Source: a bacterium (GTDB taxonomy: Bacteria; Patescibacteriota; Microgenomatia; Curtissbacterales; GWA2-41-24). From it: a stretch of 64,000 bases of DNA. The stretch covers positions 11,424-75,423 of the forward strand of contig JAKALT010000002.1 of the NCBI GenBank assembly GCA_021813125.1, written 5' to 3'. Under the pieces are notes generated by a model, which saw nothing but the letters and a program-made list of their open reading frames with translations, did not search any database and was not told the DNA's origin. Every line of letters starts with the position of its first letter. Position 1 is the stretch's first letter. This document shows positions 1 through 16,901 of the stretch, in pieces. The translations under genes were made by a program, and so were the position numbers.

Positions 1-1424
1 AAAATACTTGCATTCAACCTTACCTTTCGAGCCTCTTCAGCTTTTATATGTCTACCTGTGACTGTAAATGCAGTTCTGTCTCCTTGAGAAACAAGGCTTG
101 GATAAGGACAGTCTTCGTTGCACCCTTCGCTCTCTTTGACATCCATGCAACCAGTAACAAAATGATAATTTTGCTCTCCGATATTAGAAATATCTTGTGG
201 AGCAATAACCATTGATAAAAACTGTAAAATCTGCATAGAAGCAGTTGATAAACTAAAAGCAAACACATTTTCATTTCGTTTGATGGGATGTTCATCAGGC
301 AAAGAACTAATATAAGTTGGGTCATCTAAATAACCTTCCCGTTCCACCGATACCAACCCAGGATCATATTGCTTGAGACATTCTAAACATTTTCTTGTCG
401 GTCCAACGATATGAGCTTTCCAATCCGCCCCCTTTAGAATTCCTTTAGGGCTAACACTTACAGTTATCCCTCCATCTATAATTGGGATTAAGTGAGCATA
501 GGCAATAAAATTTAACACACTTCTAGCCCAAGGTCGGTCAACACAACTGAATATTACATCGCAATCAAGAGCTTCCCTAAAACCATCTTCTTCAACAACG
601 CTATATTCTAGTGACTCAGCTGTAAAATCGGTTGATGTTGCGTTTTTCCGAATCGCACGTGCCACAACATTCACTTTAGACTTACCTACATCTTCTCTGG
701 TCGCATGTAATAATCTGTCTAAGTTAACAAGTTCAACGCTATCAAAGTCAATCAATTTGATGTTTGCTATCCCCATTCTAGCGATTGACTCGGCTACCAT
801 AGACCCAACGCTGCCAACACCGATAATCCCGACTTGTATTCTTGCCAGATCAGCTTGTTTATTCTCTCCCCAAGCAGAAATAGTGCGCTCTAACTCTCTT
901 CTAAACTCTGGTTTAGGTAAAAGCTGTTCATTAAAAGTAATATTCAGCGCGTCACCTATAATTCTTACGGTTTTACACCAAAATCTTTCATATGTTCGAG
1001 GTTTAATTTTTTCCCAAAATCTTGCACTCCATGCCCCATCAGTACCAAGAGTTAACCCAACTAAGGGAAACCGAGTGGCCCCCCTTGTAGGTGCAGCATG
1101 GTTTAATTCTGCAAAAAAATCATCTCTGCTCATGTCTTGCCAGCCGGGACTAGTATGGCTATGCATAAACGCTAAACAGGCATTCTTTGAAGATGCTATA
1201 GAAAGAGCCCTTTCGAAGTAGCCAGGCAGAAAACCTGCGTTCTTATGTAGCACATGTTCTCCCTTCTCAGGAAGGATAAGTTCTCTAATAAGTGCAGTTT
1301 CCCTATTACGTCCGATGCTTGGATACCATATAGCAAAACACAAATTTTCTTGTCCGTCTTTCCTCAGCAAGTGTTCTAAAGCCTGTTTGTGAATGTCAGA
1401 AGGAATCGCTACGCTATAATTCAT
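1..1424 (-). CDS. JAB/MPN (JAMM) metalloprotease domain fused to E1-like ThiF/MoeB adenylyltransferase domain; C-terminus truncated by window edge
   Basis: Manual minus-strand translation from the ATG at 1424 is open to position 1 with no stop, so the track omits it because the stop lies outside the window. The N-terminus carries a JAMM-like E...HSH-x8-S-x2-D motif (QENLCFAIW ... MHSHTSPGWQDMSRDD). It is followed by a glycine-rich GIIGVGSVGS (GxGxxG) nucleotide-binding loop, IDFDSVELVNLDR, and two CxxC pairs (CLEC ... CNEDC) typical of MoeB/ThiF/E1 zinc sites. The start overlaps the upstream gene's stop (ATGA). Confidence 0.7.
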   Translation of the reverse strand, partial: MNYSVAIPSDIHKQALEHLLRKDGQENLCFAIWYPSIGRNRETALIRELILPEKGEHVLHKNAGFLPGYFERALSIASSKNACLAFMHSHTSPGWQDMSRDDFFAELNHAAPTRGATRFPLVGLTLGTDGAWSARFWEKIKPRTYERFWCKTVRIIGDALNITFNEQLLPKPEFRRELERTISAWGENKQADLARIQVGIIGVGSVGSMVAESIARMGIANIKLIDFDSVELVNLDRLLHATREDVGKSKVNVVARAIRKNATSTDFTAESLEYSVVEEDGFREALDCDVIFSCVDRPWARSVLNFIAYAHLIPIIDGGITVSVSPKGILKGADWKAHIVGPTRKCLECLKQYDPGLVSVEREGYLDDPTYISSLPDEHPIKRNENVFAFSLSTASMQILQFLSMVIAPQDISNIGEQNYHFVTGCMDVKESEGCNEDCPYPSLVSQGDRTAFTVTGRHIKAEEARKVRLNASI

Positions 1425-1789
1425 TGAGTTGAAAAAAGATGACGGACATATCTCATATAATCCCTAACAGCTCTTTTAGTTTTAGCCCATTCCCCGGGAG
1501 GGAAGGGTCTGCTCCAGTATTCCCAGTCGGGTCCAAAATTAGGACTCTCTGCAACTCTTGCGGGATGACTTGTCTCATTTGGATTAATTGGTAGGATTCT
1601 AGGCGACACATGAAGACCGCCTGGAGGGTTTAAATTCCAGTCTTGCGGAACATCAAGACCTAGTTTTATCGATTGGTCTTTAAATTTTCCATCTAACACA
1701 ACATAATCAAACACAATTTTATTATCGTTTAACACCTCAGCTTGGTAGCCTAGTGTATTAAGCTCATCGATAAATTCCTGTGTTGGCAT
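1421..1789 (-). CDS. UBC-fold E2-like protein with no cysteine (UEV-like, predicted catalytically inactive E2)
   Basis: 122 aa. An N-terminal helix, a PPGGLHV flap, then SHPAR...DWEYWSRP resembling the HPN...W-S-P core of E2/UBC. The sequence contains no Cys at all. It is translationally coupled in the operon: it starts 3 nt after the Ubl-like gene's stop and overlaps the downstream gene (ATGA). Confidence 0.4.
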   Translation of the reverse strand: MPTQEFIDELNTLGYQAEVLNDNKIVFDYVVLDGKFKDQSIKLGLDVPQDWNLNPPGGLHVSPRILPINPNETSHPARVAESPNFGPDWEYWSRPFPPGEWAKTKRAVRDYMRYVRHLFSTQ

Positions 1790-1792
1790 ACT

Positions 1793-2053
1793 TTAAGAAA
1801 CCGGCGTCTCGCCGGTAAACACCGAAATAAATTTCATTTTTTCATGCATGTGAATTGACTCATCCATCTTATCTTTGTAAGACTCTCTGTGATTACCTTG
1901 CATTTGGACTAAATAATGATTTTCAGGATCAATTCCAGCTTTTTCTAGTATCTGTCGTGGAGTTAATGTCTTTTCAGTAGTGTATTGCTCTTCGTCGTCA
2001 ACCATATATTCTATTTCTTTATTTTTAGGTTCATCGTTTGACATACTTTTCAA
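1793..2053 (-). CDS. small acidic protein, putative beta-grasp ubiquitin-like (Ubl) protein; C-terminus ...VFTGETPVS with no Gly-Gly
   Basis: 86 aa with a strong SD (GAGGAGG) about 9 nt upstream of the ATG. It is the first gene of a three-gene operon that contains E2-like and JAB-E1 genes. The segment LTPRQILEKAGIDPENHYLVQ is compatible with a beta-grasp fold. The call rests mainly on operon context. Confidence 0.3.
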   Translation of the reverse strand: MKSMSNDEPKNKEIEYMVDDEEQYTTEKTLTPRQILEKAGIDPENHYLVQMQGNHRESYKDKMDESIHMHEKMKFISVFTGETPVS

Positions 2054-2092
2054 CCTCCTCTCTGTTCAATTTTGCAGTTGCTTTCAGTGAAT

Positions 2093-2130
2093 TTGACATT
2101 AAGGTTAATATACCATAAACTGTAAGGTAT
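2093..2130 (+). promoter_or_regulatory. candidate sigma70-like promoter (TTGACA-17-TAAACT) for the LexA-paralog operon, overlapped by inverted repeat ATACC-N11-GGTAT (2110-2130) as candidate operator
   Basis: TTGACA at 2093-2098, a 17-nt spacer, TAAACT at 2116-2121. The 5-bp inverted arms at 2110-2114 and 2126-2130 straddle the -10. This sits in the divergent intergenic region between the Ubl operon and the lexA-like gene. Confidence 0.3.
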
Positions 2131-2147
2131 CAACAATAGTTAAGTGT

Positions 2148-2750
2148 ATGCTTCCACCAAAGCAAAAAGCGGTTTACGATTTTATAAAAAAATTCCAAGT
2201 TGAACATGGGTTTGGGCCAACTCTAGATGAAATAGCGACCAAACTCAAAAAAACAGTTCCCACGATTCACCAACACGTGCAAGCACTGAGAGCTAAAGGC
2301 TTCCTAAAACAAGTTGGAGTTGTCGCCAGAAGTATATCAACATTTGATTCAAACGAGGAGGTGAGTGAGATTCCTCTTTTGGGCTATGTTTCAGCCGGTA
2401 GTGGTATTGAGAATATTGAAAATCCAGAAACCATAAAGGTTCAGAATTCTATGATTTCTCCCCAAGGGGCTCACTTCGCCCTGATCGTGAAAGGAACTTC
2501 AATGATAGAAGACGGGATATTTCCTGAAGATATAATCGTGGTAAAACGCCAAAACTTCGCTGATAATGGAGACGTCGTTGTGGCTTTGACAGGTTCTCAG
2601 GATAGAGCACTTGCCACTGTCAAGCGGTTTTACAACCAAGGCGATAAAATTGAACTAAGGCCCAAAAATCCAATACTGCCCTCAGTTTTTTACGATCCAG
2701 GCCAAATAGAAATTAGAGGAAAATTTGTTGGGTTAATTAGAAGAGCTTAA
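2148..2750 (+). CDS. LexA-family repressor paralog (wHTH plus S24 autopeptidase), first gene of the R-M operon
   Basis: The N-terminus has a LexA-type winged HTH (GPTLDEIATKLKK...HVQALRAKGFL). The C-terminus has S24 catalytic motifs: VKGTSM (Ser) and VVKRQ (Lys). It is separated from dcm by 18 bp. Confidence 0.8.
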   Translation: MLPPKQKAVYDFIKKFQVEHGFGPTLDEIATKLKKTVPTIHQHVQALRAKGFLKQVGVVARSISTFDSNEEVSEIPLLGYVSAGSGIENIENPETIKVQNSMISPQGAHFALIVKGTSMIEDGIFPEDIIVVKRQNFADNGDVVVALTGSQDRALATVKRFYNQGDKIELRPKNPILPSVFYDPGQIEIRGKFVGLIRRA

Positions 2751-2768
2751 CTTGTTATTATTATAACT

Positions 2769-3806
2769 ATGAAAAAGTATTCTGTCATTTCTTTGTTTAC
2801 TGGTTGCGGCGGCCTTGATTTGGGATTCGTTGGTGGCTTCACTTTTATGAACAAGCTTTATCCAAAAAGCAATTTTGAAATTATTTGGGCCAATGACATT
2901 GATAAACCCTCTTGTCAAACCTTTAGCAATTACTTCGACCATGACATTGTTTGCGGAGATATCACCCAAATTCTTGACGGTAACCCGAACTCATTTTTTG
3001 ATAAACCCTTGCCAGAACATGCCGACATAGTTATTGGTGGTTTTCCTTGCCAAGATTTTAGCCACGCTGGCAAAAGAAAAGGCTTTAACGCTAAAAGAGG
3101 TCTACTTTATCAGAGTATGTGTGAGGTTGTGAGACGCACAAAACCTATCTTGTTTGTCGCTGAAAATGTAAAGGGGCTGACGACCATGGATGATGGGAGA
3201 GCTTTAAAAACTATTATTAATGACTTTGAAAAGTTAGGATACAACGTTACCTACAAATTATTAACCGCCGCAGACTATGGAGTTCCTCAAATTAGAGAAA
3301 GAGTCATTATCGTTGGGACACGAAAAGAGAGTCTTCCCCTCTTTGAACACCCAAAGCCAATTCTAGATAAAAATGAGTGGGTTACACTTAAAGAGGCTAT
3401 TGGCGATTTAGAAAATGTTCCTGAAGGGGCGGTAGCTAACCATTATTGGTCTAAAGCTAAGATGTTTCCAGGAACGCAAGGGAACACTTTTGTTTCCCCT
3501 GATAAGCCTGGTCCAACGATGAGAACGGAGCATCATGGTAATATCGAATGGCATTGGAATAAAAAAAGAAGATTATCGGCCAGAGAAGCGGCAAGGATTC
3601 AATCTTTTCCTGACGATTTCGTTTTTTACCCTTCGACTTCATCAGCTTATAAACAAATTGGTAACGCCGTTCCACCGGTATTAGCCTGGCACGTCGCTAG
3701 AGCAATTGAAAAGTTTCTTAATAAAAACGTTGAAAAAAGTAAGGTTGAATCCAGCCCATCCCTTGATAGACTACTTGCCACTCAAACTGAAGCCAGAACT
3801 TTATGA
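2769..3806 (+). CDS. dcm: DNA (cytosine-5)-methyltransferase
   Basis: Motif I FTGCGGLDLGF, motif IV GFPCQDFS, motif VI ENVKGL, and the C-terminal QIGNAVP. Confidence 0.9.
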   Translation: MKKYSVISLFTGCGGLDLGFVGGFTFMNKLYPKSNFEIIWANDIDKPSCQTFSNYFDHDIVCGDITQILDGNPNSFFDKPLPEHADIVIGGFPCQDFSHAGKRKGFNAKRGLLYQSMCEVVRRTKPILFVAENVKGLTTMDDGRALKTIINDFEKLGYNVTYKLLTAADYGVPQIRERVIIVGTRKESLPLFEHPKPILDKNEWVTLKEAIGDLENVPEGAVANHYWSKAKMFPGTQGNTFVSPDKPGPTMRTEHHGNIEWHWNKKRRLSAREAARIQSFPDDFVFYPSTSSAYKQIGNAVPPVLAWHVARAIEKFLNKNVEKSKVESSPSLDRLLATQTEARTL

Positions 3807-4867
3807 TTGTTATAGATGATCCCAACATACTTCAAGAGAGCTTCTTACGGCTCTTGGAAAATACTAAAACTCACACTCTTGACGAACTTGTCGCTTTAGG
3901 AGGAAAAGCTAAAAAACTTAATGGTGATGAATTTGAAAATATCGTTTATAACAGTAGTTTAACTGCCTCAAAGAAAACTGAGTTTGAGGGTCACGTGATT
4001 CACACAGGTCCTCACGCTTTTCCTGATATCATAGCGAAAAAATACTTCGGGATTGAAGTAAAAATGACGACTGGTGATAAGTGGGTTTCCACCGGGAACA
4101 GTATTTTGGAAAGCACGAGAGTCGATGAGGTTGAGAAGATCTACATGTTTTTTGGCAAATTCGGTGGAGGCATAGATATTCGCTACAGGAATTATCAGGA
4201 TTGCTTATACGATATCGGTGTTACTCACTCACCTCGATACAAGATTGACATGGATTTAGTTGAGGGAAATTCAATTTTCGACAAAATGGGAGTTTCCTAC
4301 GAGGAGCTTCGAAAAGAAAATAACCCCATAAATAAGATTAAGGACTACTATCGGAATCAATTGAAAGATGGCGAAGAGTTGTGGTGGATTGACGCTCAGG
4401 TAGAAGACAAAACGGTAAGCCCCATCATTAAACCCTTTCGGTTATTGAGTCGAGAAGATCAAAAAAATTTCATTACCGAGGCAATGATTCTTTTTCCTGA
4501 GATATTCGGAAAGAGCGTCACTAAGTACGAAAGACCAGCGGCTTACCTTATCACAAAATATAACTCCGTGTCCTCCAGTTTAAGAGATATATTCACGGCT
4601 GGTGGCCAGGTAGAGCTATCCGTCATGGGTAAAAAAGTGATAGTCCCAAGGATATTCGCCCACTTGCTAGAAGAAGCTAAGAATATCCAGCGTAAAATCG
4701 CAGAGTTAAATGTGAATGATTTAGCGTACTACTGGAGAACGCAACGAATAGATGAGCCTCGTGTTGATCAGTGGAAACAGTTAGTCAATCAAGAAACGGG
4801 TGGACAACTTGATGGTTTAACTGCCTCCAGTATTTACGAATGGGGACTAAAAGAAGACGAAAAATAA
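3803..4867 (+). CDS. putative type II restriction endonuclease (PD-(D/E)xK) cognate to the C5-methyltransferase
   Basis: It overlaps the dcm stop (ATGA). FPDIIAKKYFGIEVKMT fits the PD...E-x-K nuclease motif. Its position lies between the MTase and vsr. Confidence 0.5.
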   Translation: MIVIDDPNILQESFLRLLENTKTHTLDELVALGGKAKKLNGDEFENIVYNSSLTASKKTEFEGHVIHTGPHAFPDIIAKKYFGIEVKMTTGDKWVSTGNSILESTRVDEVEKIYMFFGKFGGGIDIRYRNYQDCLYDIGVTHSPRYKIDMDLVEGNSIFDKMGVSYEELRKENNPINKIKDYYRNQLKDGEELWWIDAQVEDKTVSPIIKPFRLLSREDQKNFITEAMILFPEIFGKSVTKYERPAAYLITKYNSVSSSLRDIFTAGGQVELSVMGKKVIVPRIFAHLLEEAKNIQRKIAELNVNDLAYYWRTQRIDEPRVDQWKQLVNQETGGQLDGLTASSIYEWGLKEDEK

Positions 4868-5307
4868 AAAATTACGCCGGACGTGACTACAAAAAAGAAA
4901 GGGTGCCGGATAAACAATCTCCATTGTCTCGATCGGCTCAAATGTCCAAGATTCGGTCTAAAGACACTAAGTTTGAGGAAGATTTTATAAACACCTTGAA
5001 AGGCATATACGACAAGAACTTTCTAACCCACGTCCGCTCGGTCAAAGGTAACCCAGATATAGTTTTTAGTGAAAAGAAATTGTGCTTGTTTTTAGATAGC
5101 GACTTTTGGCATGGTTGGCAATATCCTAGGTGGAAACACTTACTGAAAGATGATTTTTGGAGAAGTAAAATCGAAAATAATAGGCAGAGGGACGTTAAAG
5201 TAACGAGATTTTTGAGAAAGAGTGGTTGGAGAGTTATAAGAGTCTGGGAACACCAGTTAAAAGACAAAGATGCTGTTCTAGCGAAAATACGACAATCGCT
5301 CCAATAA
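4840..5307 (+). CDS. vsr: very short patch repair endonuclease (Vsr); true start may be the internal ATG at 4942
   Basis: MSKIRSKDTKFE ... GNPDIVF ... CLFLDSDFWHGW ... WRSKIENNRQRD ... GWRVIRVWEHQL matches Vsr family signatures. The first 34 codons overlap the REase 3' end. Confidence 0.85.
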   Translation: MGTKRRRKIKNYAGRDYKKERVPDKQSPLSRSAQMSKIRSKDTKFEEDFINTLKGIYDKNFLTHVRSVKGNPDIVFSEKKLCLFLDSDFWHGWQYPRWKHLLKDDFWRSKIENNRQRDVKVTRFLRKSGWRVIRVWEHQLKDKDAVLAKIRQSLQ

Positions 5308-5338
5308 AAATTTGATCAATAAATTCTAAGGATTGGTC

Positions 5339-7036
5339 CTACTTTGATTTACTCTTTGAAGCTTGTTTATCATCTTCGGGAGGTATTTCGCCTATTTGTG
5401 CTACATGACCGCTTATGTTCAGCGTCAGAATTGTTTTGTTCTCGTTCTTTTTTACTCTTGGATATTTTTTGAGGAATTCTCGGTTCTCACTTAGCAGATA
5501 AATGGTTTCATAAACTGAGCCGTTTGTTCTCCTTAAATCTCTGCCATGTAATAATCCTTCTCTTCGTATTTTTTTAACGGAAGAGGGATGGATATTATGC
5601 CTTGAATTTAATTGCGAATGTGAAATCCACTCATCTTCGTTATCGAACAGGTGTTTCTTTAGTTGGGGTATAACTCCTTCCTTAATGTTGCGCCAACAAT
5701 CCGCGCAGCGGATACCCTCTAAGTTCCACCAGATTTCGTTGCCATAATGGCCTTCGTAGCAAATTCCACAGTTGTAATAGCCATCCGCATCAAGGAAAAA
5801 TCCATCCGGCTCTTTTTCCAGCCTTCTTTTTCTCACGGCATCAATTCCTTCCTGCTCACCTCGCATTTGCGCAAGCTTCACCCAACTGCTGGTACTGTAT
5901 TTCATTCGCTTTTCAGGGTCTAGCGCTATTGGTTGCTCTTTTTTCCCTTCGTAAAGCTTTAGCAAATCCTCTTCGCGTTCATATCCCTTTAGCCTTCCAG
6001 AAAGAACACCGAGTCGATAACTCACGTTATCCATAAGTCGCCAGTTAGTATTTCCTAACTCATTTTTAAGGAGCTTCTCAAGTGTACTTACACTTATGTT
6101 TTCTCTTCGTGAGGCTTCGGCATCCTGCAACGTAAACGGAACGAAAATAAATTGTCCTATTTCCGGAGCAGAAAAGGAAAGCTTCACATAGTTCGCCTTT
6201 CCCAATATATCCGTTAAGCGTTTTTCCAGCTCAACAATAGTTAACTTTTTAAGCCTGCTGACTTGCTGGTAAGCGCTGTTATCATATTTTTGCTTTGTTT
6301 CATCATGAACAAGTTTAGCGTATTCCATTGCCTCCAGTTCAAACAGGTACTTTTCTCCTTGCTCATCTGTTAAGCAAAAGGCGGTTCTGTACTTTTCCAA
6401 CAGCTCTTTATCTGCCTGTTCTTTTTGCTGATACTCTTTATGGTTCATTTCAAAGTCATCCACTTCAGTTTCGGTATAGCCACAGAACTTACATTTTCTC
6501 GTCCAGGTTATAATTTTTCCTTGCTTTGCTTTTGTATGCTTTACTTCAATTTCTCTGTTGCATTTAGGGCAAAGGTCGGGCTTCGATTGTCTTATTTGGC
6601 CGTTTTCGTAAACCCATTCTTGTTTTTTGCACTTGGTACAGCGAAAAAGAAATATGACCCGCATTGGCTGGTCGGTATAATCTTCAAGATGCTTAGTCTC
6701 GGTTGCTTGCATTATTGCTTTGCATGATGGGCAGTAGATACTTTGGGGTTCAACTGCACTGTCATACTTTTCCTGTTTAATTCTGTCTGCATCCATCCAT
6801 TTTTTAAGCGTTTCCTTCTTGCTTTTGTATTCCTGAGCCTGAGTTAACCATAATTGCCAATACATCAGTTTTGTCGTGTTACTGTATTTATCCTGCTTTG
6901 ATATTCCTTTAAACTCTTTACTGGTTAAGCCTTTCTGGTAAATGTCTTCGAACATTTCAACAATCTTGAGACACTCTTTTATCGTTAAAAGATCGTAACG
7001 GTCAATATAATTTTGCTCGTTTTGCAAATAATCCAT
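5339..7036 (-). CDS. large (565 aa) protein with multiple CxxC zinc-ribbon motifs, unknown function
   Basis: CPSCK...CTKCK and CPKCN...CKFCG zinc ribbons, a coiled-coil-like middle, and a C-terminal CGIC-YEGHYGNEIWWN-...-CADC cluster. It is convergent with vsr and divergent from the XRE regulator. Confidence 0.55.
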   Translation of the reverse strand: MDYLQNEQNYIDRYDLLTIKECLKIVEMFEDIYQKGLTSKEFKGISKQDKYSNTTKLMYWQLWLTQAQEYKSKKETLKKWMDADRIKQEKYDSAVEPQSIYCPSCKAIMQATETKHLEDYTDQPMRVIFLFRCTKCKKQEWVYENGQIRQSKPDLCPKCNREIEVKHTKAKQGKIITWTRKCKFCGYTETEVDDFEMNHKEYQQKEQADKELLEKYRTAFCLTDEQGEKYLFELEAMEYAKLVHDETKQKYDNSAYQQVSRLKKLTIVELEKRLTDILGKANYVKLSFSAPEIGQFIFVPFTLQDAEASRRENISVSTLEKLLKNELGNTNWRLMDNVSYRLGVLSGRLKGYEREEDLLKLYEGKKEQPIALDPEKRMKYSTSSWVKLAQMRGEQEGIDAVRKRRLEKEPDGFFLDADGYYNCGICYEGHYGNEIWWNLEGIRCADCWRNIKEGVIPQLKKHLFDNEDEWISHSQLNSRHNIHPSSVKKIRREGLLHGRDLRRTNGSVYETIYLLSENREFLKKYPRVKKNENKTILTLNISGHVAQIGEIPPEDDKQASKSKSK

Positions 7037-7130
7037 TAATCTCTGGTTAAATAAAATTTTAATAAATTACTTTACAGACATGATTATAATATAAAACTAT
7101 CTCTAAAGGTTGTATAATAAGACTTAAAAT

Positions 7131-7337
7131 ATGGTATCTAAAAACAGACTAGGTGAAAATCTAAAAAAAGCCAGACAGAAGGCAGGGCTATCACAAGTAC
7201 AGTTGGCCAAAAAAGCAAAAATACACGCAAATTATTACGCGCGGGTCGAACGTGGCGAAGTTAACCCTTCGGTTGAAATAGTGGAAAATATAGCCAAAGC
7301 TCTGAATGTAAAATCATCAGAGATATTACCCTTTTAA
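7131..7337 (+). CDS. XRE-family helix-turn-helix transcriptional regulator
   Basis: 68 aa with GLSQVQLAKKAKIHANYYARVERGE, a typical Cro/C1 HTH. Confidence 0.8.
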   Translation: MVSKNRLGENLKKARQKAGLSQVQLAKKAKIHANYYARVERGEVNPSVEIVENIAKALNVKSSEILPF

Positions 7338-7399
7338 TCTGAAAATTCAAAAAGAGCGTAATTGGATTGTCAGAACAGGTTATTTGTATCTTCCTGCGC

Positions 7400-7428
7400 T
7401 TGATAGGCTTCCATTAATTTGCTAAAAT
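7400..7428 (+). promoter_or_regulatory. candidate promoter TTGATA-17-TAAAAT upstream of tRNA-Arg
   Basis: The -35 is at 7400-7405 and the -10 at 7423-7428. The tRNA starts at 7484. Confidence 0.35.
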
Positions 7429-7483
7429 GAGCCAAGATCGGGAGTACAATTAGTTCAAAATAATTTGCGTCTCCCGCTCATTA

Positions 7484-7556
7484 GCCCGCGTAGCTCAACG
7501 GATAGAGCACTCGCGTTCTAAGCGATTGGTTGGGGGTTCGAATCCCTCCGCGGGCG
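7484..7556 (+). tRNA. tRNA-Arg (anticodon TCT)
   Basis: Hand-folded cloverleaf: acceptor GCCCGCG/CGCGGGC, D-arm GCTC-AACGGATA-GAGC, anticodon loop GTTCTAA, T-arm GGGGG-TTCGAAT-CCCTC. No CCA is encoded. Confidence 0.7.
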
Positions 7557-7633
7557 CTTACTTTTTCTTGTAAACTTCTTTTACTAAAAACAGTGAATGA
7601 GTAAAATGATTTTTGGTATAATTTGGTATGTTT

Positions 7634-7708
7634 GGTGGCTGTAGCTCAGTTGGTTAGAGCGCTGGCTTGTGGAGCCGGATGTCGGGGGTTCGAGTCCCCT
7701 CAGCCACC
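7634..7708 (+). tRNA. tRNA-His (anticodon GTG) with encoded G-1
   Basis: G-1 pairs with discriminator C. Acceptor GTGGCTG/CAGCCAC, anticodon stem CTGGC/GCCGG, loop TTGTGGA, T-loop TTCGAGT. An extended -10 (TGgTATAAT) lies about 12 nt upstream. Confidence 0.8.
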
Positions 7709-7714
7709 CATAAT

Positions 7715-14015: not shown

Positions 14016-16901
14016 TCAAGACATGTGCTTTTTCAAAAATTGACCCGTGTAAGACTTATTGATTTTTGTTAAATCTTCGGGTGTTGCCGTTGCTATCACG
14101 TGACCGCCAGCGTTGCCGCCTTCAGGTCCAAGGTCAATTATCCAGTCCGCGTTGGCTATTATGTCCATGTTGTGCTCAATAACAATTACGGTGTTACCTG
14201 TTGATACCAGTCTATCTAAAATTGTTAGTAACCTTTCAATATCTGCAAAATGAAGGCCGGTTGTGGGCTCGTCCAAGATGTAAATTGTTTTGCCGGTCGC
14301 CTTTTTTGAAAGCTCTGTTGCAAGTTTTACACGTTGTGCCTCACCCCCGGAAAGCGTCGGTGCTGGCTGTCCAAGGTGTATATACGAAAGGCCTACATCA
14401 TTTATAGTTTCCAGCTTTTGTTTAATTTGCGGAATATTTTCAAAAAACTCCAGGGCTGTTTCTACAGTCATTTGCAGTACCTCTGAAATATTTTTGCCCT
14501 TATAGTGAACCTCTAATGCTTCTTCGTTGTACCTTTTTCCTGCACAAACTTCGCAATCAACGTAAACATCCGGCAAAAATTGCATCTCTATTTTTACCTG
14601 ACCTTCTCCTTCACAAGCTTCGCAGCGTCCGCCTTTGACGTTAAACGAAAATCGTCCGGGGTTATAACCACGAATTCTGGCGTCTGTTGTTTGAGAGAAT
14701 AATTCACGGATGTGTGTAAAAGCACCGGTGTACGTTGCAGGGTTTGAACGTGGCGTTCTGCCGATAGGCGACTGGTCTATAAGAATTACTTTATCAACAT
14801 TTTCCAAGCCTCGAAGTGATTTGTAAGCTCCAGGTTTATCTTTTGAACTGTAAAGCTCTGAGGCGATTGCGTTATATAAAACGTCGTGAATTAGTGTTGA
14901 TTTCCCCGACCCCGAAACACCAGTTATACAAATTAGGTTTCCCAAGGGAAGAGTAATGTCGATATCTTTAAGATTGTGTTCTCTGGCGCCAATAAGCTCA
15001 AGAGTTTGGCCGTTTAGGGAAACGCTGCGCATTTTTGGAAGCTTGATTTTCTTTTTGCCGGACAGATATTTTCCGGTAAGTGAGTTTGGGTTTTTAGTTA
15101 TTGATACAGGCGAACCTTGCGCAATAATCTTACCTCCATGTTCACCTGCACCAGGGCCGAAATCCAAAATCTCATCTGAGGCGAACATCATTTCGCTGTC
15201 GTGCTCAACTACTACAACAGTATTTTCCAGATCGCGAAGTTTTTTCAGTGTTGATATGAGTCGCCGATTGTCTCTTTGGTGAAGACCAATTGACGGTTCG
15301 TCCAAAACATATAACACACCCGAGAGGCCAGAGCCTATTTGTGAAGCAAGCCGTATGCGCTGCGCCTCGCCTCCCGCCAAGGTAACCGCGGACCTGGCGA
15401 TTGTCAAATAGTCCAGGCCAACGTCTACAAGAAATTTTGTCCGAGTCAACAGTTCTTTTAAAATAGGCTTAGCGATTAAAGCTTCTCTTTCTGAAAGCAG
15501 GGGCGGGTCATTATTTTCTAATTTTTGAAGCCATAAAAAGAGGTCTTGTATGCTTTGGATTGAGATATCTGCAATTGACCTTTTTTCAATTGTGACAGAT
15601 AGCGCTTCGGGTTTTAACCTGGTTCCCAGGCAAGTTTCGCAGTCTTCCTGCCGCATAAATCGTTCAATTTCCCGCCTGACGAAATCCGATTCCGTTTGTG
15701 AATATTTAAGCTCTATATTTTTTAATACACCTTCAAAGTTGCTATCCCAGGAAACAATCTTGCCAAACCTGTTCGGTCCTTTAACTCTGTATAACTTGTC
15801 GTCTGTTCCGTTTAGTATCTTGTCTTGTGAATTTTGGTCAAGATTGCTAAAGGGTATATTTAAGGAAACGCCATTTTCTTTGCAAACTGTTTCAAGAACC
15901 CTCCAAGACCAGGAATCGCTACCAACAATTCTGGCCCAAGGCAGGATTGCGCCTTCTGCTATTGTGAGATTGGGATTAATAACAAGCTTGGGGTCTACTT
16001 TTTTAATCACGCCAAGGCCATTACATTTAGGGCATGCCCCATGAGGAGAGTTAAAAGAAAAAGACCTTGGTTCTATTTCCGGAAGAGATATGTTGTCAAC
16101 CGGGCACGTAAATTTTTCGGAAAAAAGATGATCTTTTAGCTCCTTAGGATACTTGGGAATTTCGAAGCTTTTATCCAGAATCTCTGAGGCAATTAGTGAA
16201 CCTTCAGAAAGTTTTAATGCCTGTTCTGTGGATTGGCTAAGCCTTTGTTTTTCTGCCGGAATTACAAGTCTGTCTATTACAACGTCAATTGTGTGTTTGT
16301 TCGTTTTAATAAGCGTAAAATCTTCGTCAATTTCGCGTATTTGCCCGTCTATCCTTGCTTCACGGTAGCCCTTTTTTAAAAGGTCCCTAAACAACTGGGT
16401 AAATTCACCTTTTCGATCTTTTACAACTGGAGCAAGGAGAAGTATTTTAAGATTCTTGGTGTTTGTTTGAGTTGGGAGTTTTTGAATTTCGTCGACAATT
16501 TGAGAAGCAGATTGGTGCGAAATTTCCCGCCCGCAGATTGGGCAATGCGGGTGACCGATGCGGGCAAAAAGTAGTCTTAGATAATCATAAATCTCCGTCA
16601 CCGTACCAACTGTTGAACGTGGGTTGTGTGACGTTGACTTTTGATCTATGGAGATTGCCGGCGAAAGGCCTTCTATTGAATCAACATCCGGTTTGTCCAT
16701 TACACCCAAGAATTGACGTGCGTATGATGCGAGCGATTCAACATACCTCCGTTGGCCTTCGGCATAGATTGTGTCAAAGGCAAGAGATGATTTCCCCGAA
16801 CCGGAAATTCCGGTGAAGACGATTAGTTTATTTTTAGGGATCTCAACGCTTAAGTTTTTGAGGTTGTTTTCCCTCGCGCCTTTTACAATTATTTTATCCA
16901 T
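14016..16901 (-). CDS. uvrA: excinuclease ABC subunit A
   Basis: Two ABC ATPase modules ([16 protein letters not shown]), zinc-finger CxxC pairs, and the LSGGEAQR signatures. Confidence 0.95.

Follow-up and report, generated by a model that had tools for sequence, protein, structure and literature searches.

Gene content of the locus and its integrative island

The window analyzed here, a stretch of 64,000 nucleotides (nt) from contig JAKALT010000002.1 (assembly GCA_021813125.1, positions 11,424 to 75,423) of a Curtissbacterales bacterium, contains a minus-strand gene for a protein of 565 amino acids (aa), which lies between vsr and a small regulator gene of the XRE family. The family of this protein is accessory cargo of defense and mobile islands and not a housekeeping gene. 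At this locus the accessory character is evident because four syntenic relatives lack the whole block from the XRE gene to a recombinase gene, and across the family because a homologue of 78% identity resides in another context, several genomes carry two copies and some copies are disrupted. Judged by sequence comparison, the gene is real and under selection, and not a chance open reading frame (ORF), since at least 628 full-length homologues (E <= 1e-3, word-indexed search) and 949 representative clusters at 50% identity (exhaustive profile search) exist and the homologues share their start methionine with the 565-aa protein. The features of the locus are the following:

5339..7036, minus strand: 565-aa gene with ATG start (ORF list)
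7131..7337, plus strand: gene for a 68-aa XRE-family helix-turn-helix (HTH) regulator (ORF; Pfam HTH_3, 3.1e-17; PADLOC Control_protein, 4.7e-15)
7037..7130: divergent AT-rich intergenic region of 94 nt (sequence)
4840..5307, plus strand: vsr (Pfam Vsr, 1.5e-13), convergent with the 565-aa gene
7484..7557, plus strand: tRNA-Arg(tct), right-hand island boundary (ARAGORN)
7635-7709: tRNA-His, following tRNA-Arg(tct) (ARAGORN)
1..7483: in-window part of a 12.4-kb island (gene content, tRNA positions, absence in relatives)
2148..5307, plus strand: LexA-like/Dcm/type II restriction endonuclease (REase)/Vsr operon, convergent with the 565-aa gene (Pfam, PADLOC)
1793-2053, minus strand: multiubiquitin-like 86-aa gene (Pfam Multi_ubiq, E 0.12)
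1421-1789, minus strand: Prok-E2_E-like 122-aa gene (E 1.6e-4)
1-1424, minus strand: ThiF-type E1 gene, 487 aa, which runs past the window edge (parent contig: ThiF, 2.8e-32)

A preliminary description of this DNA had reported the 565-aa ORF, its convergence with vsr and a divergent 68-aa XRE gene behind a 94-bp gap, and all three were found in the window, the stop codons of vsr and the 565-aa gene being 31 nt apart. An AT palindrome occupies 7047-7066 of the intergenic region, and each of the two genes has promoter-like hexamers there. On the minus strand, promoter-like sites were located at 7116-7088 and 7142-7114; hexamers and sites are consensus matches only. With its matches to HTH_3 and to the PADLOC profile, the XRE protein was considered as a controller (C) protein of a restriction-modification (R-M) system, but this assignment was rejected as the 565-aa gene separates it from the REase gene. 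The XRE gene is followed only by tRNAs.

Read from right to left, the island consists of the XRE gene, the 565-aa gene, the Vsr-REase-Dcm-LexA genes and the Mub-like, E2 and E1 (ThiF) genes. Left of the window follow genes for an 836-aa DUF87/TrwB/TraG-like ATPase resembling coupling proteins, a 133-aa ORF and a 555-aa large serine recombinase beside tRNA-Gly(tcc). On the parent contig (L088), the XRE side of the island is flanked by UvrA, transglutaminase, UvrC, holin-like, CofD, SecG and SBP_bac_5 genes, tRNA-His and tRNA-Arg(tct), and beyond the recombinase lie tRNA-Gly(tcc), Exo_endo_phos and h148. Four syntenic relatives (L093, L094, L095 and L098) could be recovered by a protein search anchored on the flanking SBP gene (SBP identity 76-59%). 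All four agree with the parent contig in the left synteny and in the right anchor Exo_endo_phos-h148, and all genes from XRE to the recombinase are absent. Their tRNA-His, tRNA-Arg(tct) and tRNA-Gly(tcc) are contiguous, with 6 nt from tRNA-Arg to tRNA-Gly in L095 and L098 as compared to 12.4 kb in the window genome. On L088 the tRNA block occupies 4081-4306 and tRNA-Gly 16730-16803; the ORF of the large serine recombinase (15219-16886) overlaps tRNA-Gly with its called 3′ end on the opposite strand. The block is a lineage-specific integrative island of 12.4 kb, whose insertion point lies between tRNA-Gly(tcc) and tRNA-Arg(tct), on the 3′ side of tRNA-Gly. As the syntenic relatives lack the block and in two of them the tRNAs lie 6 nt apart, the 565-aa gene and the XRE gene are placed at the tRNA-Arg end of this island; the recombinase is located at the opposite end. 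A search of JGI metagenomes for strain variants by exact DNA yielded no match.

No att-like repeat could be detected at the island ends by blastn-short. The only notable match between them, of 15 nt (CATTTTAGCAAATTA / CATTTTACCAAATTA), was rejected as att repeat since it reads as a tRNA promoter: the two copies lie upstream of tRNA-Arg and tRNA-Gly and show a TG-TAAAAT promoter-like site. A transposon reading was also rejected, as the inverted and direct repeats in 4700-7700 were only short and at chance level. In a scan of 60 other loci, tRNAs were rarely near the family gene, and the tRNA link is specific to the island of the window.

Within the operon convergent with the 565-aa gene, Pfam recognizes Peptidase_S24 together with LexA_DNA_bind, DNA_methylase (C5 methylase; 1.7e-78) and Vsr, and the 354-aa ORF between dcm and vsr matches PADLOC REase_II (7.7e-42). 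The LexA-like S24 gene ends 18 nt before dcm; dcm overlaps the REase gene by 4 nt, and the REase gene overlaps vsr by 28 nt. LexA appears to be the first gene of the R-M operon, an order suggestive of SOS-type control of the restriction system. The three ubiquitin-like conjugation genes at 1-2053 on the minus strand form an operon of the Bil/Bub/'6E' type.

Architecture of the protein and extent of the family

The domains of the 565-aa protein, as delimited by cysteine invariance, DSSP and structure models, are encoded as follows:

6752..7036, minus strand: N-terminal helical hairpin, residues 1-95 (DSSP helices 7-38 and 47-93)
6455..6745, minus strand: two C4 zinc ribbons, residues 98-194 (cysteine invariance; three-stranded ribbons in the AlphaFold model)
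6251..6454, minus strand: second helical hairpin, acidic, residues 195-262 (helices 195-220 and 224-251; ending near the near-invariant C221)
5942..6250, minus strand: alpha/beta domain (beta-beta-alpha-beta-beta), residues 263-365 (DSSP; flanking helices in the model)
5657..5800, minus strand: treble-clef C4 zinc finger, residues 413-460 (C423, C426, C444 and C447; models)
5372..5656, minus strand: basic winged-helix-like domain, residues 461-555 (DSSP alpha-alpha-beta-beta; long, Microgenomates form only)

The protein contains exactly 14 cysteines. Eight of them form ribbon 1 (C102/C105/C133/C136) and ribbon 2 (C156/C159/C182/C185), four (C423/C426/C444/C447) belong to the C-terminal cluster CGIC-YEG-H430-YG-N433-EIWW-N438-LEGIR-CADC, and C22 and C221 lie outside these three C4 sites, each of which is built from two CxxC knuckles. 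All 14 cysteines are invariant in 29 homologues of 49-78% identity, and the 12 cysteines of the C4 sites are invariant across the long forms. In an alignment of 57 diverse members, the cysteine columns are invariant or at least 90% conserved, as far as the short forms possess these columns; for the family as a whole this applies to the eight ribbon cysteines. Not a single invariant histidine was found anywhere in this wide alignment. Conservation spans the whole length of the protein, with a mean column identity of 66% among sequences 49-78% identical to the query.

An AlphaFold model built on the 29-sequence alignment reached a mean pLDDT of 84.4 and a pTM of 0.65, and residues 410-556 modelled alone a pLDDT of 87.5. 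The two N-terminal CxxC...CxxC ribbons that had been noticed from the sequence are three-stranded ribbons in this model, and the C-terminal CGIC...CADC cluster is present with the residue spacing described for it. The long helical middle proposed between them is only partly helical: helices cover 195-251 and 384-408, the latter being one long helix, but an alpha/beta domain at 267-363 lies between them. This domain carries the motifs TNWRL330-334, YRxG340-343 and KxYE350-353, with W332 and G343 invariant and T330 and N331 near-invariant family-wide. In the first hairpin Y10, D15, T18 and D84 are invariant family-wide and Y14 and C22 near-invariant, and in the treble-clef finger W436, W437 and N450 are invariant. 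Within residues 420-452 of the models, the first CxxC of the finger forms a knuckle, a beta-hairpin follows and the second CxxC opens a helix. The winged-helix-like fold spans 473-550 in the model and gave a weak Pfam match to the DUF1233 excisionase (E 0.06). The median isoelectric points (pI) of the segments differ, with 8.6 for the ribbons and 9.1 for the winged helix (basic) and 4.9 for the second hairpin and 5.0 for the treble-clef finger (acidic). Taken by its modelled domains, the protein is composed solely of binding-type modules.

The family occurs in two main forms. Long forms of ~555 aa are found in Microgenomates (Roizman-, Beckwith-, Woese-, Davies- and Levyibacteria), and short forms of ~360 aa, which are the majority of the family, in Shapirobacteria and Parcubacteria lineages. 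As the short forms match query residues 1 to ~361 only, the alpha/beta domain closes the core, and the C-terminal ~190 residues have been added to it; in Microgenomates this addition consists of the treble-clef zinc finger and the winged helix. On the models, the core of ~360 aa comprises a helical hairpin, two zinc ribbons, a second helical hairpin and a possibly S24e/L23-like alpha/beta domain. The C-terminal module was also seen as a stand-alone protein, P0264 (194 aa), in which a short helical N-terminus precedes the treble-clef/winged-helix module. A rare long form, P0126 (697 aa; also L038, 698 aa), is extended at its C-terminus by a P-loop kinase-like domain (Pfam AAA_18, 1.1e-6).

The taxonomic range was read from source names and record titles. 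On this basis, and among the lineages that could be judged, the family appears confined to Patescibacteria, the candidate phyla radiation (CPR). Some records of metagenome-assembled genomes (MAGs) carrying the family, for example L003, L004, L006, L010 and L032, bear titles such as Gammaproteobacteria, Pseudomonadales, Methanobacterium or Nanoarchaeota. These non-CPR titles were treated as unreliable because, in the one pair compared, L010 (titled Gammaproteobacteria) and L030 (Levyibacteriota), the DUF2779 neighbors share 89% identity.

That no family could be recognized in the preliminary description holds for all libraries used in this study. Neither the single sequence nor the 29-sequence profile matched a named family in Pfam, NCBIfam, PHROGs, PADLOC or the PDB, only sub-threshold zinc-ribbon matches being obtained. 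The 120 homologues listed are near full length save a few fragments and include no Pfam domain beyond an occasional zinc-ribbon match. When the 57 members were scanned singly against Pfam at E <= 1, only zinc-ribbon models recurred (DZR in 25/57, HypA in 23/57 and Zn_ribbon_8 in 17/57), all of them below threshold. PADLOC-DB v2 gave no significant match, the only hit being LmuB (E 0.0057, 13 bits) in the zinc-ribbon/helix region, and the PDB sequence-profile search gave insignificant matches only (POP6 with E 0.018, ZPR1 and Kti11). By tblastn the family gene was not found in 50,697 phage and 72,556 plasmid records. One IMG/VR contig matches; on it, a split copy of the family gene accompanies a type I R-M system, and no phage structural genes were seen. 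A description of the family was not found in the literature.

Structure prediction, which had been suggested as a check, did not name a family either. Foldseek with the full model returned nothing at E <= 1e-3 from the PDB or BFVD. The top PDB matches were chains of the ribosomal protein eS24/S24e (E 0.008-0.1, probability up to 1.0, ~100 aligned columns, target TM-score 0.36-0.61, identity 8-15%), with E-values above any safe threshold; they were placed on the alpha/beta domain by topology only, as the Foldseek tool reports no query range. BFVD gave local matches to MqsA, the NrdR N-domain and Lar zinc ribbons. For the model of residues 410-556 the best PDB match had an E-value of 0.41, and XPA, TFIIE and MarR/PadR winged helices were found at E 0.4-3. 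With eS24 as best structural match and with its strong full-length conservation, the family could be a lineage-specific housekeeping factor for RNA or the ribosome, built from an S24e-like domain and ribbons, which merely lies beside recombination hot spots. This is highly improbable, as the eS24 matches are weak (best E 0.008), the island is absent from the syntenic relatives, neighbors differ even for the homologue of 78% identity, copies are pseudogenized and duplicated, and the neighbors are overwhelmingly defense or mobile genes.

For the C-terminal cluster a compact HNH-like or treble-clef nuclease motif had been proposed. The treble-clef geometry is present in the models, but the HNH residues are variable and no nuclease fold was matched. 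Among the 29 homologues the column of His430 contains H in 18, Y in 6, A in 4 and T in 1, and asparagine is found at Asn433 in 20/29 and at Asn438 in 23/29. None of the 57 members scanned singly gave an HNH Pfam match at E <= 1, and no nuclease was among the Foldseek PDB matches of the full or the isolated C-terminal model. As the module is in addition absent in most members, the HNH-like nuclease reading was rejected. No catalytic signature was revealed by any library or fold search used.

Genomic neighborhoods of the family and the XRE link

Genes were called in 81 further loci of the family, the six neighbors on each side were clustered, and representatives were annotated with Pfam, PHROGs and PADLOC. 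No fixed partner gene exists across these 81 loci. The recurrent neighbors are:

23 loci: ParB-N + N6/N4 DNA methylase
19 loci: HsdM
18 loci: XRE
14 loci: LexA-like S24
13 loci: DUF2779 (Cas4-like)
10 loci: HsdR
9 loci: TerS-like
8 loci: trypsin-like protease
7 loci: FtsK-gamma
6 loci: PLD nuclease
6 loci: large serine recombinase
6 loci: TerL (phrog_38, 5.8e-78)
6 loci: Shedu SduA_C
5 loci: PD-(D/E)XK nuclease
5 loci: OLD
4 loci: HsdS
4 loci: DUF4209 / PDC-S39

Further neighbors include a CBASS TRIP13 gene (2.6e-124) with a SAVED nuclease (3.2e-103) and PDC-M14A. Counted strictly, a defense gene lies within six genes of the family gene in 44/81 loci, and in 36/59 of those loci which are not cut by a contig end (at least nine neighbors). 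If orphan methylases and Cas4-like nucleases are included, these numbers rise to 60/81 and 49/59; mobile markers were found in 17/81 loci. Screens for new defense genes rely on guilt by association, that is, on most members of a family being within a few genes of known defense genes, and in a majority of the 81 loci the family gene indeed lies within six genes of defense genes. The homologue of 78% identity resides in a different island with a type I R-M system, YgjP, DUF2779 and FtsK-gamma. Two diverged copies per genome or MAG occur in the pairs L002/L028, L005/L012 and L010/L043, and at least three copies are split or truncated (L005, L087 and L044).

Two layouts recur. In the first, one strand encodes TerL, TerS and the ParB-methyltransferase (MTase), and the other LexA and a 69-aa HTH protein, followed by cargo that varies (among others Shedu, CBASS and R-M) and by the family gene. 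In the second, an R-M system is followed by DUF2779, none to two further genes and then the family gene. In this second layout the DUF2779 proteins are 60-67% identical between loci and the family proteins, which comprise long and short forms, only 33-40%; this difference points to a repeated or persistent association. For DUF2779, which is uncharacterized, a role as solo-Cas4-like nuclease has been proposed (PMC13621843). In L001, L014, L033, L043, L060 and L072-L080 its gene precedes the family gene by one to three genes, and often an R-M system of type I or IIG and a trypsin-like protease come before it.

A phage-type cassette on one strand, consisting of the ParB-N/DNA methylase (phrog_498, 6.3e-70), the small terminase and the large terminase (phrog_38, 5.8e-78), precedes the family gene in at least 12 loci (L007, L010, L017, L023, L029, L042, L052, L054, L061, L065, L079 and L092). 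No portal or capsid genes follow it, and the cassette could be a satellite-like element or a CPR prophage remnant. In Microgenomates, LexA-like genes bracket variable defense cargo together with the family gene; across all 81 loci, a LexA-like gene is within six genes of the family gene in 14.

For the XRE gene, a hidden Markov model built from the XRE-like neighbors was run against the ORFs of 82 loci, down to a length of 45 aa. Only 9/82 loci contain an XRE-like gene within 400 bp of the family gene, which is downstream on the same strand in four, upstream on the same strand in three and divergent in two; the remaining 73/82 loci have no adjacent XRE gene. The divergent arrangement is limited to the contig of the window and to L087, in which the XRE gene heads a type I R-M operon. 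The XREs closest to that of the window are from L022 (59% identity), L004 (51%), L028 (46%), L026 (44%) and L059 (43%); most of them directly follow a family gene of the same orientation. As an XRE gene is found within 400 bp in so few loci and in three geometries, the link to one XRE subgroup is facultative and geometry-free and does not represent an obligate pair of toxin and regulator.

In L022, L026, L028, L059 and L004 the family gene is followed by the same-strand XRE gene, a convergent gene of ~80 aa and a 150-170-aa nuclease of the PLD family (PLDc_2, 2.9e-13). This arrangement may be a separate small defense or toxin module.

These results bear on the preliminary description, in which the divergent pair was taken as the typical layout of a regulated defense or toxin gene and its absence from other genomes as an argument against this. 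The defense and mobile surroundings are real, both here and in most of the 81 other loci, but the pair is not conserved: it occurs in only 2/82 loci, and with 73/82 loci lacking any adjacent XRE gene the reading as a paired system largely fails. The corresponding model, a toxin or defense nuclease with an HNH/treble-clef site which is held in check by a divergent XRE repressor or antitoxin, is very improbable. The treble-clef geometry in the models, the island context rich in defense genes, the nine loci with an XRE gene within 400 bp (four of them resembling a reversed toxin-antitoxin order) and the fact that the XREs nearest to that of the window mostly adjoin family members would all fit this model. 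It conflicts with the variability of His430, Asn433 and Asn438, with the lack of a nuclease among the Foldseek matches and of an HNH Pfam match in the 57 members, and with the absence of the C-terminal module in most members and of an adjacent XRE gene in 73/82 loci, so that the protein is not an obligate toxin.

A different possibility is that the protein is a DNA-binding transcription factor or anti-repressor which controls neighboring defense genes or the life cycle of the element. Zinc modules and a winged helix without any enzyme domain would suit such a regulator, repressor-type genes recur nearby (LexA-like S24 in 14/81 and XRE in 18/81 loci), and so does the frame of TerL-TerS-MTase and LexA-cargo-family gene; moreover, the family co-localizes with unrelated defense systems, as WYL regulators do according to PMC9122601. 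Still, this possibility appears unlikely, since the DNA-binding-like C-terminal module is missing in the short form, which is the majority, the gene is mostly situated at the downstream end of an operon or alone and not upstream of a regulated system, and a protein of 360-565 aa conserved over its full length is large for a simple regulator. An operator-like motif upstream was also not evident by eye: no common motif could be seen in the 130 nt upstream of 45 homologues and in the lexA upstream region, which were inspected without a formal motif search.

The position of the gene at the very end of the island beside a tRNA raises the question whether it encodes an unrecognized enzyme of the mobile elements, such as an unconventional recombinase, transposase, relaxase or replication initiator of the host islands. 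Close homologues in differing contexts would agree with this, as would the invariant Y10 and the invariant acidic residues D15 and D84 and a resemblance of the ribbons and coiled helices to the zinc-ribbon modules of large serine recombinases and IS1595/Cas12f-like proteins (sub-threshold Pfam matches in 6-13/57 members). Such an enzyme is nevertheless improbable: flanking terminal inverted or direct repeats and att-like repeats at the island ends are lacking, the paralogues within a genome are old (47-71% identity) and not recent copies, the alpha/beta domain is four-stranded and comes with no conserved DDE, HUH or RHRY-like set and no invariant histidine, the island has its own serine recombinase, tRNAs are seldom adjacent in other loci, and the phage and plasmid collections yielded no match.

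Proposed role and comparison with known systems

The explanation favored here, if only tentatively, is that the family consists of accessory, non-catalytic, zinc-dependent binding proteins which take part in the conflict with mobile elements and in defense. The 565-aa protein would bind three zinc ions and act without catalysis, recognizing nucleic acid and/or a partner protein while the cell is in conflict with a phage or mobile element. It would most likely be a stand-alone sensor or blocker, or an adaptor for neighboring nucleases (R-M enzymes, Cas4-like DUF2779), and the basic winged helix would tether the long form to DNA. Repression of the 94-nt promoter region shared by the two divergent genes is the probable task of the XRE protein in this genome; it would be a local arrangement and not the design of the family. 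A more specific version of this role, possible if doubtful, is that of a CPR-specific single-gene immunity factor or its sensing subunit, which senses invading DNA or a phage protein through the zinc-ribbon/plait core and has no known effector domain. Such a factor might act by occlusion or by directing the neighboring Cas4-like (DUF2779) or restriction nucleases.

Several points weigh against a non-catalytic binding protein in defense. No effector domain was found through which a pure binder could protect the cell, and the kinase-like fusion in P0126 hints that some members may need an enzymatic partner. The residues Y10, D15, T18, D84, W332, C22 and C221 could form an unrecognized active site. 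Since the protein as a whole is near neutral (median pI 7.5) and the finger and the second hairpin are acidic, DNA binding is plausible only for the ribbons and the winged helix, and the matches of the models to eS24 and to winged-helix folds are all below significance. The counts of defense neighbors are raw numbers with no matched genomic background, so an enrichment factor is not established, residents of islands can be hitch-hikers, and R-M genes are abundant in CPR genomes. The probability left after the binding-protein role and the four alternatives discussed above falls to something else.

CPR bacteria account for a large part of the diversity of bacteria. Roughly one in two of their genes lacks an assigned function, and conserved hypothetical proteins are common in their genomes. 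Among these, the present family stands out by being unusually large, tightly conserved and consistently located among defense systems (R-M, Shedu, CBASS, OLD). Were it an immunity or conflict factor, it would be a defense component without a known effector domain and would offer a handle on how the ultra-small CPR episymbionts cope with phages and with DNA that enters the cell; if it is a CPR-specific immunity factor, it would represent a new mechanistic class of defense in an immune repertoire which is barely charted. Should it turn out to be island baggage or a regulator only, an annotation as HNH nuclease or toxin would still have been removed before spreading. Documented in any case are the tRNA-Gly/tRNA-Arg integration site and, in Microgenomates, a recurrent region of variable cargo between the LexA-like gene and the family gene.

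Compared with known folds, the alpha/beta domain resembles eS24/L23-like proteins in its beta-beta-alpha-beta-beta topology at residues 283-351, the eS24 fold being described in SCOP as beta-(alpha)-beta-alpha-beta-beta, but the genomic context of the family is not ribosomal. The two CxxC...CxxC three-stranded ribbons at residues 98-194 are shared with DZR, Zn_ribbon_8, the HypA zinc site, the MqsA and NrdR N-domains and Lar. Such stand-alone zinc-ribbon modules have 40-70 residues, cover less than 20% of the protein and are uninformative on function, and the 565-aa protein lacks the MqsA-type HTH, the ATP-cone and any other partner domain of these zinc-ribbon families. In the model of the C-terminal 147 residues, a C4 finger followed by a winged-helix-like domain recalls XPA and TFIIE; as all these matches have E >= 0.4 and low probability, this is a resemblance only. 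With HNH/beta-beta-alpha-Me nucleases the finger shares the succession of CxxC knuckle, beta-hairpin and a helix starting with the second CxxC (residues 420-452), whereas the catalytic histidine and the Asn/His metal ligand are not conserved and the module is acidic and absent in short forms.

At the level of gene arrangement, HigBA and MqsRA are reverse-order type II toxin-antitoxin pairs with an XRE-HTH antitoxin. The likeness lies in 4/82 loci, where the family gene is followed by a small same-strand XRE gene 28-244 nt downstream. In contrast to these pairs, the XRE gene is absent in 73/82 loci and its geometry varies, and the family protein is 5-10 times larger than the HigBA and MqsRA toxins and has no toxin domain. 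Regulators with a WYL domain (BrxR/CapW type) co-localize with many unrelated defense systems, as described in PMC9122601, and the family of the 565-aa protein likewise accompanies many unrelated defense systems and islands. Unlike those regulators, it contains neither a WYL domain nor an N-terminal winged HTH, its core has no clear DNA-binding domain, and its gene is mostly downstream or solitary and not upstream of a system. Thus, the individual modules are familiar, while the architecture as a whole and the family have no characterized relative by sequence or structure; the genomic setting is of a known kind, namely that of cargo of defense islands or integrative islands.

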